Of a stretch of 64,000 nt of DNA, positions 7,713-14,146 are shown piece by piece. Source of the DNA: Candidatus Obscuribacterales bacterium (GTDB lineage: Bacteria; Cyanobacteriota; Vampirovibrionia; Obscuribacterales; Obscuribacteraceae); the NCBI GenBank assembly GCA_965228855.1, contig CBDDIJ010000003.1, forward strand, positions 2,464,001 to 2,528,000. The letters run 5' to 3'. How positions within the stretch are numbered: the first letter of the stretch is position 1; each line of letters begins with the position of its first letter. The notes under the pieces were generated by a model. That model made no database searches, was not told the origin of the DNA, and saw only the letters and a list, made by a program, of their open reading frames with translations. The position numbers and the translations under genes were made by a program.

Positions 7713-8534
7713 CTATTTCTTAGACAATTCCGGATGCACGAGCGTAACTGGAAAGAGATCCGCTTCCGGATAAATCAGGCGCAAGTTTGTTGAAGCTGAA
7801 TCTTCGCTGTCACCATTGCGTTCCGACAAACTGGAGTTGGAAGCAAGAGGCGCATATTGACCCGATTCTACGCCCACCCCGCCATAATCCATCGCTGCAA
7901 GATTCAGCGATATTCCTGATTGAGGCAAGCGCGAATCGAAGCGATTGACCGGATCGTTAGCTCCGACTTTCTGTTGGATTTTCTGAATTACCGCAGCCGG
8001 AGCCGGACTCGGAACGCAGATTATTGCGCCGGTCAATGTTCCTTTTTTTGTTTGCAGTTTATTGACCTTGGTTATAAACGAACTGAGATATCGCGACGCA
8101 CGCTTGTCGAAATCCTTGCGCTTTTGCGGTTTCACCAGACGCGCAATCACCAGCGGACTGTTTTGACTGTTGTAAAACACGATGTCAAAAACCGGAATTC
8201 TGATTGGTACAAGAAAGCCCTGACGAACAACTTCTACTTTGCAGGACGTCAATCGAGAAATCGATTCCCACAATTCTCTCTGGCGATTGTAAAGACCAGT
8301 TCTGTGAGCCATCTCGAAGTAGCCGGAGAGTACATAATTGACAAGAGAGACGACATCTCGGGCCGGCTTTTTCCCATCAAATTCCAGAACAATATTTTCA
8401 CCGGCACGCTTCACGTCATACGGTGTTACAGAGCGTGGATTGGCGACAACAGAGAAGAGTCCGAAGGCATCGGTCTCCAGACATTTGATTTGAATATGGC
8501 GTGAAGAAAGCCGACTCATTTTATTTCCTGACAC
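7713..8534 (-). CDS. Hypothetical protein
   Basis: 273-aa ORF filling the space between convergent and divergent neighbours; no confident family. Confidence 0.65.
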   Translation of the reverse strand: MSGNKMSRLSSRHIQIKCLETDAFGLFSVVANPRSVTPYDVKRAGENIVLEFDGKKPARDVVSLVNYVLSGYFEMAHRTGLYNRQRELWESISRLTSCKVEVVRQGFLVPIRIPVFDIVFYNSQNSPLVIARLVKPQKRKDFDKRASRYLSSFITKVNKLQTKKGTLTGAIICVPSPAPAAVIQKIQQKVGANDPVNRFDSRLPQSGISLNLAAMDYGGVGVESGQYAPLASNSSLSERNGDSEDSASTNLRLIYPEADLFPVTLVHPELSKK

Positions 8535-8858
8535 AAGTATATTGAAGTGATCAATCGTGGTACATCTATGTTAACGACTTGAAATCGGCACCACATCAAT
8601 GAAAGGAGGACCAATCAAGTTATCCGACACATGCTGACCCACGGTCAGCTGATAATACTGTAAACTGGAAATAGGCGTGTAGGCGGCAGGCTCTTGCTTT
8701 CGATGGGGGAAAGCAATTGCTGGTGAGGGATGATAGCGCGGCTCCTTAAACGTATTAAAATCGATAAGACGCGATACTTCTCAAGCGCGCCCATTCGGGC
8801 CTACTTTTCCACGAGTCTTGAGTTCCAAACAGCCATAGGAAACTAGTAGCACAACGCG

Positions 8859-9431
8859 ATGACACTTATACCTTCTCGAACCAGTTTCAACATGTCCGCT
8901 GCCTCGGTTCTTACCGAGATAAAGAAGGGAGGCAACGAAAAGCGGAACGAATTCGTTTGGGTAAACCAGGAACGAGTTTACGCGATTGCGCTGATAGCCA
9001 CTGGTAGTCCTCAAGACGCACAAGAGATAACAATCGCGACTTTTAGAAACGCATTCGCCACCTTGAAAACGGCGTTGCCAAAGAAAGAGAGTGACATGAC
9101 CATTTGGGATTGGTTGTCACAGTTTGTCGTTGAAGCTTGCGAAGAATACCATGCGCGTCATTCTGACCCCCCGCAAGAACGCGACATTGATCCGTCCGCC
9201 GATGGGTCGGCGAACATGGATTGGGAAACCACTGTACTTTTAGGTGTCCAGAGAATAAGAAGATGTCTCGGCTCACTGCCTGAAGACCAGCAAAGGGTTT
9301 TCTATTTAAGGCATCACTTAGACCTCAACTACGATCAGATTTCGAGAGTCTTGAATCAGTCCAAGGAAATGACGATGGCTTCGCTTTTCCGGGCTAGAGT
9401 TCAAATCGTAAAGTGCCTGGGTCGAGGATAA
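8859..9431 (+). CDS. ECF-type sigma-70-like protein with degenerate motifs (alternative start 8892)
   Basis: Region-2-like RVYAIAL..TGSPQDAQE...F...F...WL; region-4-like LPEDQQRVFYLR...LNYDQIS.VL...LFRAR; directly upstream of a zinc anti-sigma domain gene. Confidence 0.8.
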   Translation: MTLIPSRTSFNMSAASVLTEIKKGGNEKRNEFVWVNQERVYAIALIATGSPQDAQEITIATFRNAFATLKTALPKKESDMTIWDWLSQFVVEACEEYHARHSDPPQERDIDPSADGSANMDWETTVLLGVQRIRRCLGSLPEDQQRVFYLRHHLDLNYDQISRVLNQSKEMTMASLFRARVQIVKCLGRG

Positions 9432-9473
9432 GTTGAATGCCCCCCATGATGATTTTGCAGGTAAGAATTTGAG

Positions 9474-12400
9474 ATGAGCTGTCACGAGTATAGATATCTA
9501 ATCCAACACAGGTTCGACGAGGACCTTGACGCCGACGAAGTTGAGTCGGTAGATGATCACATCGATCAGTGTGAGTCATGCCAGAAGTTTGAGCATCAAC
9601 TAGATCAGATGATCCAGGGCGCTGAGGAAATGCCCCTACCGGAGGAGCTGACTCCGCCCAATCCGGAAGCTCTTGCCAAAATGGTCCAGGACAAATTGCC
9701 GCAACAGAAGTCTTCGGTGTTCTCGATGTTCACCGAAATGTTCAGCGGCGGAAACAAGCAAGCCTCGCGGGGCAACAAAGCTTCCAAAGACAAAACCGAG
9801 TTTCCGAAACGTGGAAAGTCGGTCGCCAACAAGCGCGAATCTAGATCGGCAGAGGATAACGAAAGCGAAGAAGCAATGTCCGGCAGGCTGAAGTCACTCG
9901 CTCGCGAGCCTGACGAAAGTCGCGATTTGCAGTCCACCACCAGAGGTCTTGGTGAGAAATTCGGATTCGCAAACGCTCCCACAAGCGAGGCGAACGCCGC
10001 ACCGCTGACACTGGCAGAATCTATTCGCAGGAAAATCTCCGAATCGCAGAAATTGTCTGTCGAAGACGAAGGAGACATGACATCGGACGACCGCCTCACG
10101 GCTCCGACTCCGCCCCCAGGAATTGCGCAAACAAACGCGCCTCCGCCTGGTATCGCACAGACCGGAGGTGATCAGTGGAATGCTCCGATGAAGATATCGG
10201 GTCAGGCTCAGCCGGACGCCGGCTGGACTCCCGGTGGAGCACAACCTAATTCATGGACACCGAATCAAAATCAATCGCCGCCTTCAAGTCATCCGGGCAG
10301 CGCTATTGGACTTGCTGCGCCCGGTTCGGAGAGTGGATGGAACGAAGATAAGCGCCCTCCTCGCGGGACCAATGCCGGCGACGAGAACGCAGGCTGGGGA
10401 CCTCCCCCGGCAGGTGGTGCATGGGAAGATCCATCGGGCGGCGGTGGCGCTCAGCCACCAGCCGGACAGGAAGGCTGGGGCGCAGGAGCTTCATCGAGCT
10501 GGGCAACCTCGCCATCGCCAACGCAGCCAGGAGCCGATCAATTTGGAAGCGGCGGCTGGAATGTCCCATCAGCAAAAGAGAATCAAACTAGCGGTGCTGC
10601 TCCGGCCCCCGCGGCACCAGCTCCAGGCTGGGGTGGCGGCGGCGCTGGATCTGCGGACGGATGGGGAGGCGGCGGAAATGCTGCAGCTCCGGCCGGCGCT
10701 GGCGCAGTCAACTCCTGGGGAGCACCTCCATCCGGAGCTGCTCAAGGTCAGCAAGGCGGCTGGTCTGATGGCGGCGGCGGCAGTGCTGGTGGAGCATCGT
10801 GGGATGCAGGCAAATCAGACACGGCATCGGGCTCCTGGGCACCGACTAACACGCCACCTGCTGCAGCCGGCGATTCTTGGTCAGCAGGAGGCGGTAACGA
10901 CAGCTGGGGGGCACCCAACAACCAACAAGGCGGCGGAGCTGCTGACAGTTGGGGAGGAGCTCCCGGCGCCGAGCAACAATCGAATTCATGGGGTAATGGA
11001 GCCGCAGCGCAGGCTCCAGCACCAGCGCCGACTCCGGCGCCAGCACCGGCGCCAGCCAATGACGCAGGCTGGGGACAGCCAGCCGGTGGCGGCGATCAGG
11101 GCGGCTGGGGTTCAGGCAGTGGTCAATCCTGGGGCGGAGCTCCGGCGGCCCAAGCTCCAGCACCTCAAGCACCAGCACAACCAGCGGACCAGGGTGGCTG
11201 GGGAGCACCGGCGGCAGCCACACCAGCATCGAATCCCGGCGGAGGCTGGGGCGGTGCGCAGGGAGGAGGCGGAGAAGGTGGTTGGGGCTCAACCCCGTCT
11301 GCAGCTCCACCAGCGTCTGCAGCTCCGGGCGCGACAGCATCCGGCGATTGGACGGCTACTTCCGGTGGTGAGACTACCGGAGGATGGGGAGGCGCGGCAG
11401 CACCTGCGCCGGCAAAACAACCTGAGGGCGGAGCACCCGGTTGGGGCGCAAGCGCCAGCCAGGGAGGCTGGGACACGCAACCATGGGACGATAAGTCAGA
11501 AGCTAAACAACGTGGCAACTGGTCCATAGAAGCAGAACAGATGGAGACGGGGACCTGGAGCAGCTACAGTGGCGCTCAGGCAGCCACGGGCGGTAACGCA
11601 CTGGGCGCAAAGCCGCCCGCGCAGGCCGGACAAATGTCCAGCGAAATGTCTCAAGATCGCTGGGACACTCCGATTCAAGAACGCGGAGCACCAGCTGCTC
11701 CAGCGGCAGCCCAAGCAGCCGGCGAAAGTCATTGGGATGTGCCGATTCAAGAAAAGTTGAAAGGAAAGACGGATCCAGGCGCGGCACCACCGGCGGCACC
11801 AGCTGCACCGGGATGGGGAGCTCCCGCAGCAGCACCGGCAGCACCGGCAGCAGCTCAAGGAGCGGGCGAAAGCCATTGGGACCTTCCAATCCAGGAGAAG
11901 TTGAAACAACAGCAAGCCGGCGGAGCGGCACCATACGAAAACACGCCGCCCCAACCGTTCGGACAACCACCTGCCCCAGCGGATTCGTTCGGCGGTTCGA
12001 CAGGAGCACCGCCATCATTTGGAGCGCCTCCCGGTGCACCGGCCGCGCCACCAGCATTTGGTGCTGCGCCAGGGGCACCGTCAGCAACTCCGGCATTCGG
12101 AGCGGCCCCCGGCGCACCAGCTGCGCCACCAGCATTCGGTGGAGCACCTTCGGATAACGCCTTTGGCGCGCCGCCGGCATTCGGCGCTGCACCCGGCGCT
12201 CCAGCATCACCACCGGCATTCGGTCAGCCGCCAGCAGACACGACACCTCCGGCGTTCGGTGCACCACCGGCGCCATCTTTCGGTGGAGCACCAGCGCCTG
12301 CAGCACCGGCTCCAGCCGCTCCAGCTCCAGCAGCCGCATCCGGCGGCGCAGGATTGTTCTCGAAACCTCTAGACGACAGTGCCATGGATCAAATTTTCGA

Positions 12401-14081
12401 TGGTCTCGGCATTAAGGAAAGCGGCGTCCAACCAGTTCAATCTGCGCCCGCAGCGGCTCCACAACAAGCGACCCTGCAACAGGCGCCTAATGTGCCACCA
12501 CCGGCACAGGCTCCGGCACCAGGTGGATGGGGAACACCTCCAGCACCGGCAGCTCCAGCTGCAGGAGGATGGGGAGCGCCTCCGGCACCAGCAGGAGTTC
12601 CGGACACAATGTCGTTTGCACCGGAAGTTCAGGCTCAAGCTGAAGCCCCCAGACTCACAGCTATTCCTCCGAAGGCTCCAACAACCGAAACGCAAGCACC
12701 ACTTCCAGCTCCGGCACCACCGGCGATGCCAGGAATGCCGGCACCTTCGGCCGCACCACAGGTCGCCCCCGTCCAATCTAAGAAAGCGGGCGGCGGAATG
12801 TTCTCGCTGGACGACGATGCAGTCGATCAAATCTTCGCGAAAATCGGTGTCGAAGAATCTTCGATTCCGGTCAACCAGGGCGCAGCAGCTCCGGCAATGC
12901 CAGCCGCAGCAGCGCAAATGCCGGCAGCAGCGGCCGCAACGCCGGCGCCACCGGCGATGCAATCAATGCCTGCCCCTCCAGCCATGACACCGCCGGCACT
13001 GGGTCAGCCTCCGGCTCCGAGCGGCATGGCGCCACCACCAGCGATGCCGAATTCAGGTGCGCCACCAGCTTTTGGCATGGCACCACCGGCAGGCATGACA
13101 CCGCCCGGCGGAATGGCTCCTCCAGCAGGTTTTGGAGCTCCTCCAGGAGGTATGCCGGCGGCACCGATGCCACCACAAATGCCAGCAGCACCAGCGGCGG
13201 CACCACAGCAAAACAAATCCGGACTGTTCCAGGTCGATGATAAAGACATGGACAGCTTATTCGACAAAGTTCTTCTCAATCCTGGCTCCGAAGGCGCTAC
13301 AGCCGCTGTCAGCGCCCCTGCGCCGCAAGCCCCTGTGGGCGCCGCTCCGCCTCCTGGATTTGGCGCACCGCCGGCTCCGCAAGCAGGCAACGGTCAGTAC
13401 CCTCAGCAAGGAGCGATGCCGGCAATGCCTCCAGCGATGCCGGGGATGCCACCCGCCATGCCCGGCATGGGAATGCCCGGAATGGCCCCTGCCCCAGCTC
13501 CTGCTCCGGCGCCGGAACCGCCGGCAGCAGCAGTGGCTCACGTGCCACAATCAAATTTGCCACCACCAAAAATTGAAGGTATCGGTAAACTTGACGCAAG
13601 CGCTGATGTTGCGGAGACAGGCTCCGGAAGAATTGCGGCAATCGGCAAATTCTTGCTGGACCAGAAAGATCTGGAGAAGCTCAGCAAGATCACTGCCGCC
13701 GATCAGCAAGATATAAAAATGCGCATCCTCACGCTCGAAGCATCTGAGGATCTGCAAACTCTCTTGAGCGAAATCGGCGGACAAGAGAAGGTCATTGGTT
13801 CAGTTATCGTCGGACACGACGGTCTCTTGATTGCCAACACGATGCCGGAAGAAGTGGATGCTGAGTCAATCGGCGTATGGGCTCTGGGTGTCTATATGAA
13901 CACTGAGCACGTGACAAAGAAAATGGGTCACGAGCGCGTGCACCAGGTCGTCTCACGAACACCTCGGGGTTACGTGGTTATCGCGGACTTCGGTGGCGGC
14001 TTGCTCGTCACGATTACCGAAGGAACCGACACTGACACCTTGATTCCACTGATGCGCAAGATCACCGATCTGGTTTCCTAG
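9474..14081 (+). CDS. 1535-aa protein: N-terminal zf-HC2 (ZAS) anti-sigma zinc finger, ~1300-aa low-complexity region, C-terminal Roadblock/LC7 (MglB-like) domain
   Basis: MSCHEYRYLIQHRFDEDL...DHIDQCESC (C...HxxxCxxC); C-terminus LQTLLSEI...VIGSVIVGHDGLLIA...G.....QVV..T..G.VVI......LLV; no transmembrane segment seen. Confidence 0.88.
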   Translation: MSCHEYRYLIQHRFDEDLDADEVESVDDHIDQCESCQKFEHQLDQMIQGAEEMPLPEELTPPNPEALAKMVQDKLPQQKSSVFSMFTEMFSGGNKQASRGNKASKDKTEFPKRGKSVANKRESRSAEDNESEEAMSGRLKSLAREPDESRDLQSTTRGLGEKFGFANAPTSEANAAPLTLAESIRRKISESQKLSVEDEGDMTSDDRLTAPTPPPGIAQTNAPPPGIAQTGGDQWNAPMKISGQAQPDAGWTPGGAQPNSWTPNQNQSPPSSHPGSAIGLAAPGSESGWNEDKRPPRGTNAGDENAGWGPPPAGGAWEDPSGGGGAQPPAGQEGWGAGASSSWATSPSPTQPGADQFGSGGWNVPSAKENQTSGAAPAPAAPAPGWGGGGAGSADGWGGGGNAAAPAGAGAVNSWGAPPSGAAQGQQGGWSDGGGGSAGGASWDAGKSDTASGSWAPTNTPPAAAGDSWSAGGGNDSWGAPNNQQGGGAADSWGGAPGAEQQSNSWGNGAAAQAPAPAPTPAPAPAPANDAGWGQPAGGGDQGGWGSGSGQSWGGAPAAQAPAPQAPAQPADQGGWGAPAAATPASNPGGGWGGAQGGGGEGGWGSTPSAAPPASAAPGATASGDWTATSGGETTGGWGGAAAPAPAKQPEGGAPGWGASASQGGWDTQPWDDKSEAKQRGNWSIEAEQMETGTWSSYSGAQAATGGNALGAKPPAQAGQMSSEMSQDRWDTPIQERGAPAAPAAAQAAGESHWDVPIQEKLKGKTDPGAAPPAAPAAPGWGAPAAAPAAPAAAQGAGESHWDLPIQEKLKQQQAGGAAPYENTPPQPFGQPPAPADSFGGSTGAPPSFGAPPGAPAAPPAFGAAPGAPSATPAFGAAPGAPAAPPAFGGAPSDNAFGAPPAFGAAPGAPASPPAFGQPPADTTPPAFGAPPAPSFGGAPAPAAPAPAAPAPAAASGGAGLFSKPLDDSAMDQIFDGLGIKESGVQPVQSAPAAAPQQATLQQAPNVPPPAQAPAPGGWGTPPAPAAPAAGGWGAPPAPAGVPDTMSFAPEVQAQAEAPRLTAIPPKAPTTETQAPLPAPAPPAMPGMPAPSAAPQVAPVQSKKAGGGMFSLDDDAVDQIFAKIGVEESSIPVNQGAAAPAMPAAAAQMPAAAAATPAPPAMQSMPAPPAMTPPALGQPPAPSGMAPPPAMPNSGAPPAFGMAPPAGMTPPGGMAPPAGFGAPPGGMPAAPMPPQMPAAPAAAPQQNKSGLFQVDDKDMDSLFDKVLLNPGSEGATAAVSAPAPQAPVGAAPPPGFGAPPAPQAGNGQYPQQGAMPAMPPAMPGMPPAMPGMGMPGMAPAPAPAPAPEPPAAAVAHVPQSNLPPPKIEGIGKLDASADVAETGSGRIAAIGKFLLDQKDLEKLSKITAADQQDIKMRILTLEASEDLQTLLSEIGGQEKVIGSVIVGHDGLLIANTMPEEVDAESIGVWALGVYMNTEHVTKKMGHERVHQVVSRTPRGYVVIADFGGGLLVTITEGTDTDTLIPLMRKITDLVS
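10170..11906 (+). repeat. GW/WG/SW sticker block (>30 Trp in Gly/Ala/Pro/Ser spacers) including three WDxPIQE motifs
   Basis: GWG, SWG, GGWG recur throughout; GESHWD(V/L)PIQEKLK duplicated at about 11720 and 11865. Confidence 0.85.
11955..12290 (+). repeat. xxFG block with ~13-aa (39-bp) GAPxxPPAFGAAP units
   Basis: About 11 FG dipeptides in (P/N)AFG, PSFG or similar context. Confidence 0.85.
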
Positions 14082-14118: not shown

Positions 14119-14146
14119 AAAGGTTCATCAGTCTGATGAACCTTTC
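14119..14146. terminator. Bidirectional terminator-like palindrome between convergent genes
   Basis: AAAGGTTCATCAG-t-CTGATGAACCTTT. Confidence 0.75.

Follow-up and report, generated by a model that had tools for sequence, protein, structure and literature searches.

A 64,000-nt window of DNA from Candidatus Obscuribacterales bacterium (assembly GCA_965228855.1, contig CBDDIJ010000003.1, positions 2,464,001 to 2,528,000, forward strand) contains two adjacent genes, one encoding a sigma-like protein and the other a giant soluble protein. The giant protein begins with a class I anti-sigma domain (ASD), continues through a long intrinsically disordered region (IDR), and ends in a Roadblock/LC7 domain. 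This fusion, with its adjacent sigma-like gene, is real and is conserved among the Obscuribacterales. The sigma-like protein retains the fold of an extracytoplasmic function (ECF) sigma factor, but most of its polymerase-clamp and −10-melting residues are lost, which suggests that it likely is a pseudo-sigma, inactive as a sigma factor. Rather than switching genes in the ordinary way, the pair likely acts as a tether within the cell-polarity machinery of the Ras-like GTPase MglA. With middling confidence, we propose that the pseudo-sigma is held on a multivalent Roadblock scaffold belonging to the MglA polarity network.

The sigma-like protein

The structural model of the sigma-like protein (pTM 0.80) shows the full ECF fold: sigma2 and sigma4 domains, no sigma3, and a short linker. 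The best matches are SigW, AlgU, SigH, and SigE. An earlier note on this DNA, made from its letters alone, called the protein ECF-like. That description is apt for the fold, but the note overlooked the degeneracy of the sigma surfaces. Pfam region 2 is detected in 0/52 family members, versus 31/31 nearest ordinary ECFs (the control scan covered 31 of 135 control sequences); Pfam r4_2 is detected in 52/52 members. The family fails the ECF classification filter, which requires both Pfam sigma2 and sigma4 domains (10.1101/2019.12.11.873521).

Residue positions were mapped by alignment to E. coli sigmaE, comparing 121 family members with the 135 nearest ordinary ECFs. Literature backs the roles of the DAED motif, N80, W73, R76, R171, S172, F175, and R176; the individual roles of Q51, E52, G168, T169, and R173 are in part what we take them to be. 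Acidic residues of DAED make the contact with the beta' clamp (PMC8999054, PMC8103513). This region 2.2 clamp-binding motif (DAED..QE) is not maintained in the family: the Q51 equivalent occurs in 0/121 members versus 124/135 controls, an acid at E52 in 4/121 versus 116/135, and an acid at D48, the fourth DAED position, in 67/121 versus 133/135. Among the residues for −10 melting (W73, R76, N80), the tryptophan is kept, and R/K at position 76 (7/121 versus 104/135) and N/H at position 80, the melting wedge (PMC6648896), are nearly lost (1/121 versus 127/135). At most two of six sigma2 positions are kept in 120/121 members, versus at least four of six in 130/135 controls. Moreover, the net charge of region 2.3–2.4 is −1.65 in the family and +2.66 in the controls, with 5–95% ranges that do not overlap.

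In sigma4, two to four of six positions are kept in 117/121 members. G/S at position 168 (0/121 versus 122/135) and R/K at position 173 (0/121 versus 82/135) are gone; T/S at position 169 (48/121 versus 116/135) and S/T at position 172 (24/121 versus 111/135) are depleted; and position 171 is K, R, or M in 110/121 members. The recognition helix instead carries E/D at the G168 equivalent in 93% of members and Trp at the R173 equivalent in 72%, and its net charge is +1.1, versus +3.2 in the controls.

Other surfaces are highly conserved. Linker residues D115, G116, S117, W122, E123, T124, and L128 are present in 100% of the 121 members, and the carboxyl-terminal RARVQxVKCLGRG is invariant. Both segments vary in ECFs, in which the sigma2-sigma4 linker is described as non-conserved (PMC8103513). 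In ECF/class I anti-sigma pairs, a charged contact joins ASD residue D11 to sigma residues R149 and R178 (PMC7406223). Both partners retain these residues here: the R149 and R178 equivalents are kept at 99%, and the ASD aspartate, D15, is conserved in 22/23 sequences. By this measure the ASD probably binds the pseudo-sigma. The kept anti-sigma contacts, the invariant linker and carboxyl terminus, and the lost melting residues together suggest that what selection appears to maintain is binding to the anti-sigma, along with a new surface, rather than the opening of promoters.

The sigma-like family is under purifying selection. The dN/dS ratio is 0.02–0.08 in the four pairs, of five compared, that have finite dS (dS is near saturation), which excludes pseudogene decay. 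In a quick tree the family forms one long-branch group, for which no sister ECF was identified.

The giant partner

The amino terminus of the giant protein has the features of a class I ASD: N-terminal helices, an Asp in helix 1, and a gene adjacent to that for a sigma-like protein. Its profile matches RsiW in the PDB (E 2e-6). The zf-HC2 profile aligns with residues 3–37, scoring 25.6 bits in a scan of the first 100 aa (cut-off 22.2) and 20.1 bits, below the cut-off, on the whole protein. The earlier note had proposed this zinc anti-sigma finger, along with the absence of a transmembrane (TM) helix and a carboxyl-terminal Roadblock/LC7 domain, and these assignments are all sustained. The highest 19-residue hydropathy is only 1.21, and it lies inside the Roadblock sheet.

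The Cys...HxxxCxxC zinc ligands are present in the giant protein and are complete in 48/66 orthologues. However, the first Cys and HxxxCxxC are both missing in 15/66, which form one clade; the zinc ligands are therefore dispensable. This loss also weakens the case for a general function of the finger in redox sensing.

The middle of the giant protein is predicted to be disordered from its composition (residues 201–1355 are 23% Ala, 19% Pro, and 17% Gly). It is not random, but comprises ordered blocks of repeated short motifs, counted here among 73 full-length homologues. Along the IDR they appear in this order: LGEKFG/LAESIRRKI, GWG, ETGTW, W-D-x-P-I-Q-E, PAFG, LF..DD..hDxIF, and then the pre-Roadblock segment. 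The W-D-x-P-I-Q-E motif is found in 47/73 homologues, with up to six copies. The LF..DD..hDxIF motif is shared with a membrane-anchored Roadblock paralogue (below). Elsewhere in the genome (G000:C5:759306-763319), a 1337-aa protein, by eye like the alpha-2-macroglobulin type, contains an insert of giant-protein motifs; these are TGSW, RWDTPIQERG, and QDSNMDMVFDHVM, in the same order as in the giant protein.

The carboxyl terminus matches the Pfam Robl_LC7 profile at residues 1428–1513 (28.5 bits, cut-off 23) and shows the five-strand, three-helix Roadblock fold. In the model, pLDDT is 40–54 over residues 1–60 of the module, the pre-Roadblock segment, and about 90 in the Roadblock domain. The model matches Asgard Roadblocks, LAMTOR, and MglB (6hjm, 3t12; E about 1e-6).

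Conservation across the order

The arrangement was surveyed in GTDB genomes, at the best 80 of 92 loci. These genomes are kin, and counts across them are not independent. Labels on the homologues assign the genome studied here to Obscuribacterales (Melainabacteria). The ASD and Roadblock domain share one reading frame in 62/80 loci, in proteins of 743–1842 aa. Of the others, 14 run off the contig, and four have the ASD and Roadblock domain in different frames; these four, with two split loci in another set, are either real splits or assembly frameshifts. The sigma-like gene lies directly 5' in 66/66 loci that reach the ASD. It is single-copy in 34/36 genomes of the family and 3/3 of the order's second family, and was found in 0/21 genomes from other orders. 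A search of 1.84 billion representatives yielded no relatives outside the order: profile scores drop from 110 bits to at most 68 bits, the latter from ordinary ECFs.

A chimeric assembly, which the earlier note had named as a danger, is ruled out by the intact fusion in 62/80 loci and by the read data: the whole stretch was recovered in one contig, with no differences, from 2/4 runs (runs that may be this DNA's own source).

Some variants occur. Two divergent members of the sigma-like family (P0210, P0211) have N-terminal extensions of ~100 aa that by eye resemble an extra helix-turn-helix. Extra small Roadblock genes lie directly 3' of the giant gene in L028, L029, and L034 and in 8/80 surveyed loci. 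The ESM Atlas returned generic sigma and Roadblock clusters only.

Roadblock paralogues, MglA, and pili

The earlier note recommended searching the genome for MglA-family GTPases and for other Roadblock genes, and both exist. Besides the giant gene there are three Roadblock genes, four in all. The first encodes a 292-aa duplicate (G000:C3:560300-561178; L071) with an internally shortened ASD that keeps C...HxxxCxxC, and a short linker; no sigma-like gene lies beside it. The second encodes a 989-aa protein (G000:C5:463825-466794; L072) with a membrane anchor, an acidic IDR, and a Roadblock domain, and is conserved through the order. Its pre-Roadblock and Roadblock module is homologous to that of the giant protein (99.7%), it carries the LF..D..D.IF motif as well, and 6/20 loci examined for this paralogue (L093-L112) encode two such modules in tandem. 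We take its layout to resemble that of the polar landmarks FimV and HubP. The third gene encodes a stand-alone Roadblock protein of 122–123 aa (G000:C2:1643990-1644361; L070; L073-L092), highly conserved and near mutS/uppS-like genes. In many genomes it shares a contig with mglA, about 40–90 kb away.

The genome encodes two group-1 MglA proteins (G000:C2:1561963-1562541 and C2:1497793-1498383). Both are orphans, in that no Roadblock gene adjoins mglA in the loci inspected. The core MglA has R53 and TVPGQ, matches Myxococcus MglA (E 2e-79), and varies little within the family (93–100% identity in nearly all genomes); up to seven MglA-like matches occur in some members of the genus. MglA occurs in 39/39 genomes of the order, 2/2 of family f3, and 0/19 others. 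No conservon-type GTPase (PF03029) scored above the cut-off.

Which Roadblock protein might serve MglA? An MglB-type GTPase-activating protein (GAP) is a single-domain protein of 129–179 aa encoded next to mglA (PMC4316618), unlike the giant tail, which forms the end of a 1535-aa fusion. MglB also needs small residues, A68 and A72, at its alpha2 interface with MglA (PMC3199381). At two alpha2 positions four apart, the giant protein has bulky Leu (97%) and Met (73%), versus Ala (86%) and Ser (81%) in the stand-alone protein; these correspond to A68/A72 indirectly, as a candidate i,i+4 pair rather than through a direct MglB alignment. The stand-alone protein therefore is probably the best candidate for the GAP, and a scaffold role is more likely for the giant tail.

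MglA control of type IV pili is established in Myxococcus (PMC10329633). Pilus genes adjoin the module in sister lineages: in 2/2 f3 genomes, a homologue of the membrane-anchored paralogue lies directly 5' of pilB-, pilT-, and pilC-like genes (pilT scores above its cut-off; the best pilB and pilC matches fall below theirs), and in one f8 genome such a homologue directly precedes pilT. These neighbors tie the Roadblock module's family to type IV pili.

A proposed scaffold and its alternatives

These features suggest how the pair might work. The ASD and pseudo-sigma would form a stable head module, whose invariant linker and carboxyl terminus would bind a third partner. The Roadblock domain would form homodimers, or heterodimers with the membrane-anchored paralogue or the stand-alone Roadblock protein; its role would be closer to that of a scaffold like MglC/RomR than to that of a GAP. 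The Trp, Phe, and acidic motifs would give multivalent clustering at a pole, and the nucleotide state of MglA would move or remodel the cluster. Through its Roadblock tail the scaffold would join the network of MglA and Roadblock proteins that controls polarity and pili, and the head would be brought with its partner to the pole. All of these binding steps, as well as the localization and the inactivity as a sigma factor, are read from sequence.

A bolder version is more tentative, and we consider it possible but doubtful. The sigma/anti-sigma pair would have left transcription entirely, to become the head adaptor of a condensate-like scaffold at the pole, made up of Roadblock domains and a multivalent disordered chain of 1,500 residues and switched by a Ras-like GTPase: a bacterial Ragulator-like organizer with a pseudo-sigma subunit, kept across the Obscuribacterales.

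The earlier note had proposed that a small-GTPase or polarity state is coupled to sigma-factor control. The orphan MglA, the Roadblock genes, and the pilus-linked module favor the first half of that idea; the sigma-control output is disfavored by the family-wide loss of clamp and melting residues.

Several observations pull the other way from the proposed scaffold. The link to MglA consists of co-occurrence among kin and of fold. By sequence, the giant-protein Roadblock is closer to Asgard Roadblocks, and MglB was not retrieved from the PDB by sequence searches with the three Roadblock classes. The operon was not found in one genome (G023, 98% complete) that has MglA. In the Obscuribacterales loci inspected, neither the operon nor the paralogues adjoin pil genes. 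PilT was not found in 3/3 f2 genomes or in the 96%-complete G011, all of which keep the sigma-like gene and MglA; twitching motility therefore is not the whole role. On the sigma side, the equivalents of W73 (100%), F/Y175 (97%), and R176 (120/121) are kept, as are the beta-flap hydrophobic residues V131, I135, I181, and V185 (compare PMC6648896). Replacing N80 with Ala in sigmaE only halves the opening rate (PMC6648896), Met at position 171 occurs in the working SigH/SigR (PMC1540707), and ECF43 sigmas, which lack DAED, are switched on by phosphorylation.

The kept W73, F175, and R176 equivalents and the Met171 of SigH/SigR fit the likeliest alternative, which is nonetheless rather unlikely. 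The protein would be a divergent but working ECF, sequestered by the giant anti-sigma and released by MglA state or polar position, possibly with acidic charges supplied through phosphorylation. The full fold with its ECF matches, the canonical order of sigma gene then anti-sigma gene, and an acidic linker that could serve as a sigma finger are all in keeping with this. Thr occupies the third DAED position in 32% of members and the next-but-two position in 89%, recalling the STTA of EcfP. Like ECF43 (EcfP/PknT), the family has a degenerate DAED motif. However, ECF43 sigmas have a conserved Ser/Thr in DAED, a linked Ser/Thr kinase, and no anti-sigma, whereas here the ASD partner is fixed, the −10 and −35 residues are altered too, and the candidate phospho-Thr is not conserved. 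No Ser/Thr kinase gene, conserved or otherwise, was recognized beside the operon in the loci inspected by eye. Also against a working ECF are the joint loss of Q51, E52, R76, N80, G168, and R173, the charge reversal in region 2.3–2.4, and the lack of a conserved ECF-type promoter upstream, where only a sigma70-like −10 word is seen.

A less probable alternative reserves a role for sigma4 alone: the released protein would bind −35-like DNA or the polymerase flap, blocking or redirecting transcription without melting. Sigma4 does keep more canonical positions than sigma2, including R176 and F/Y175, and is recognized throughout by Pfam. Against this, the recognition helix has acquired an acid at the G168 equivalent and Trp at R173 and has lost much of its positive charge, and the retained R149 and R178 are accounted for by ASD binding.

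Partner switching of the PhyR type is improbable. Here the pseudo-sigma would be a decoy that draws the anti-sigma head off a true ECF from another locus. PhyR/NepR/EcfG provide an established case of sigma mimicry (PMC4598750, PMC8999054), and one of the five true ECFs in the genome (C3:3546499) has no ASD-like neighbor; the other four each have their own adjacent ASD-like gene. PhyR likewise has a sigma fold that keeps anti-sigma binding without sigma action, shown for PhyR and only surmised here. Unlike PhyR, with its receiver fusion, NepR partner, and cognate ECF15, the sigma-like protein is a stand-alone 190 aa, pairs with a class I ASD, and has no identified cognate true sigma. None of 52 members matches the PhyR Pfam family or a receiver, and no other switch domain is evident; a weak search found no longer fused forms; and the family's long branch has no identified sister ECF. 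The invariant ASD residues and fixed gene pairing point instead to a private partner.

Least probable is that the Roadblock tail itself provides GAP activity to MglA, or works with another NTPase, with the pseudo-sigma/ASD head a passive structural relic: an orphan MglA does need a GAP from elsewhere and the fold matches MglB, but the bulky alpha2 residues argue against a GAP and the strong pseudo-sigma conservation argues against a relic.

Relation to known systems

The proposed pseudo-sigma scaffold draws its parts from known families. Gene order, the sigma2-sigma4 fold, an N-terminal ASD with HxxxCxxC, and the conserved contact between the ASD Asp and sigma4 Arg are shared with SigW/RsiW (B. 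subtilis, PDB 5wuq) and with SigR/RsrA and RpoE/ChrR, whose zinc anti-sigma proteins are soluble. Unlike these ECF/class I pairs, the sigma-like protein fails Pfam region 2, lacks the clamp and melting residues, and has an invariant linker, and the anti-sigma protein is 743–1842 aa without a TM helix, bears repeated short motifs and a Roadblock end, and has lost its zinc ligands in one clade.

The group-1 MglA with R53 and TVPGQ, the Roadblock paralogues, and the pilus link resemble the MglA/MglB/MglC/RomR module of Myxococcus xanthus (and MglA of Thermus and Bdellovibrio). Here, in contrast, MglA is an orphan, and Roadblock domains are joined to very long disordered chains that carry an ASD or a TM anchor. 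Excerpts of PMC10329633 and PMC4316618 describe no sigma-like component for the Myxococcus module.

No published account of the joined system was found, and the system falls outside ECF membership. A literature search at title and abstract level, mostly of non-subscription papers, found no description of the pair or of any fusion of a zinc anti-sigma domain, an IDR, and Roadblock, in line with the earlier note, which knew of none. The main text of the ECF reclassification preprint (10.1101/2019.12.11.873521) mentions neither Roadblock nor Melainabacteria, and its supplements could list such proteins.

The locus and its flanking sequences

The operon described in the earlier note, two genes separated by a gap and closed by a terminator, is borne out in both coordinates and anatomy (Table 1). 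The two genes, both on the + strand, are 42 nt apart. The terminator-like hairpin has 12 pairs (z −4.85), and 0/200 shuffled sequences were equally stable.

Upstream, the word GTA[A/C]ACT lies 54–208 nt 5' of the start in 16/22 regions compared. TAAACT is hardly strand-biased 5' of genes in the same genome (420 versus 402), so this word is a candidate promoter only. An autoregulatory ECF promoter was rejected, since the compared upstream regions share no conserved −35/−10 pair. Genome-wide scans with the word gave five sense versus three to five antisense matches and no coherent regulon. No Rfam matches were found.

Two further features were noted. A second conserved word, GTGGTACATCTA, lies at window positions 8557–8568 in the divergent intergenic region; its core 8-mer is present in 7/23 upstream regions. 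The divergent gene (7713–8534, − strand) encodes an uncharacterized 273-aa protein with no Pfam or NCBIfam match, and accompanies the operon in many loci.

Table 1. Features of the operon, in window coordinates
Feature	Position	Strand	Basis and remarks
Upstream word GTA[A/C]ACT	8660..8666	+	Resembles sigma70 −10 hexamer (TAnAnT); 16/22 upstream regions
Sigma-like protein gene, 190 aa	8859..9431	+	ECF sigma2+sigma4 fold, degenerate polymerase and −10 surfaces (likely pseudo-sigma); fold, residue counts, dN/dS
Sigma2-like domain	8898..9161	+	Clamp Q51/E52 and melting R76/N80 equivalents replaced; W73 equivalent kept
Sigma2-sigma4 linker DPxxDGSxxMDWETTxxLG	9189..9245	+	Nearly invariant; likely protein-binding surface
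Sigma4-like domain	9249..9419	+	GTVKSR helix replaced by E-x-V-M-A-W; R149, F/Y175, R176, R178 equivalents kept
Giant soluble ASD-IDR-Roadblock protein gene, 1535 aa	9474..14081	+	ORF, domain profiles, homologue comparison
Class I ASD	9474..9713	+	C3, H29, C33, C36; D15 conserved; R7, Q11, F39, H41, Q42, Q45 invariant
Motif pair LGEKFG ... PLTLAESIRRKI	9948..10037	+	Conserved; LAESI-type motif (LAESIRRKI) in 66/73
Gly/Ala/Pro-rich block, 30 spaced tryptophans (GWG repeats), net charge −23	10074..11513	+	In 71/73
ETGTW motif and three W-D-x-P-I-Q-E motifs (residues 730, 754, 802)	11544..11897	+	Homologue motif counts
PPAFG repeat block	12012..12284	+	39-nt tandem array at 12005-12136
Three acidic-aromatic motifs LF..DD..hDxIF (residues 961, 1109, 1251)	12354..13262	+	In 55/73
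Pre-Roadblock segment (KIEGIGKLD ... GRIAAIGKFLLDQKD ... RILT)	13554..13733	+	Conserved; low-confidence monomer model
Roadblock/LC7 domain	13734..14078	+	Robl_LC7 profile, pLDDT about 90
Terminator-like hairpin	14119..14145	+	Between operon and convergent histidine kinase gene

Significance

If the pseudo-sigma reading is true, the system would be categorically new. After PhyR, it would be a second, independent instance of a sigma fold put to a use other than sigma activity. In addition, a sigma/anti-sigma pair would for the first time be either linked to a Ras-like polarity GTPase or seen to work outside transcription. The domains all are small and amenable to in vitro tests.

The order concerned comprises non-photosynthetic relatives of the cyanobacteria. 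This uncultured sister group carries a Myxococcus-type MglA together with an expanded set of Roadblock proteins, and so bears on how an orphan MglA is regulated.

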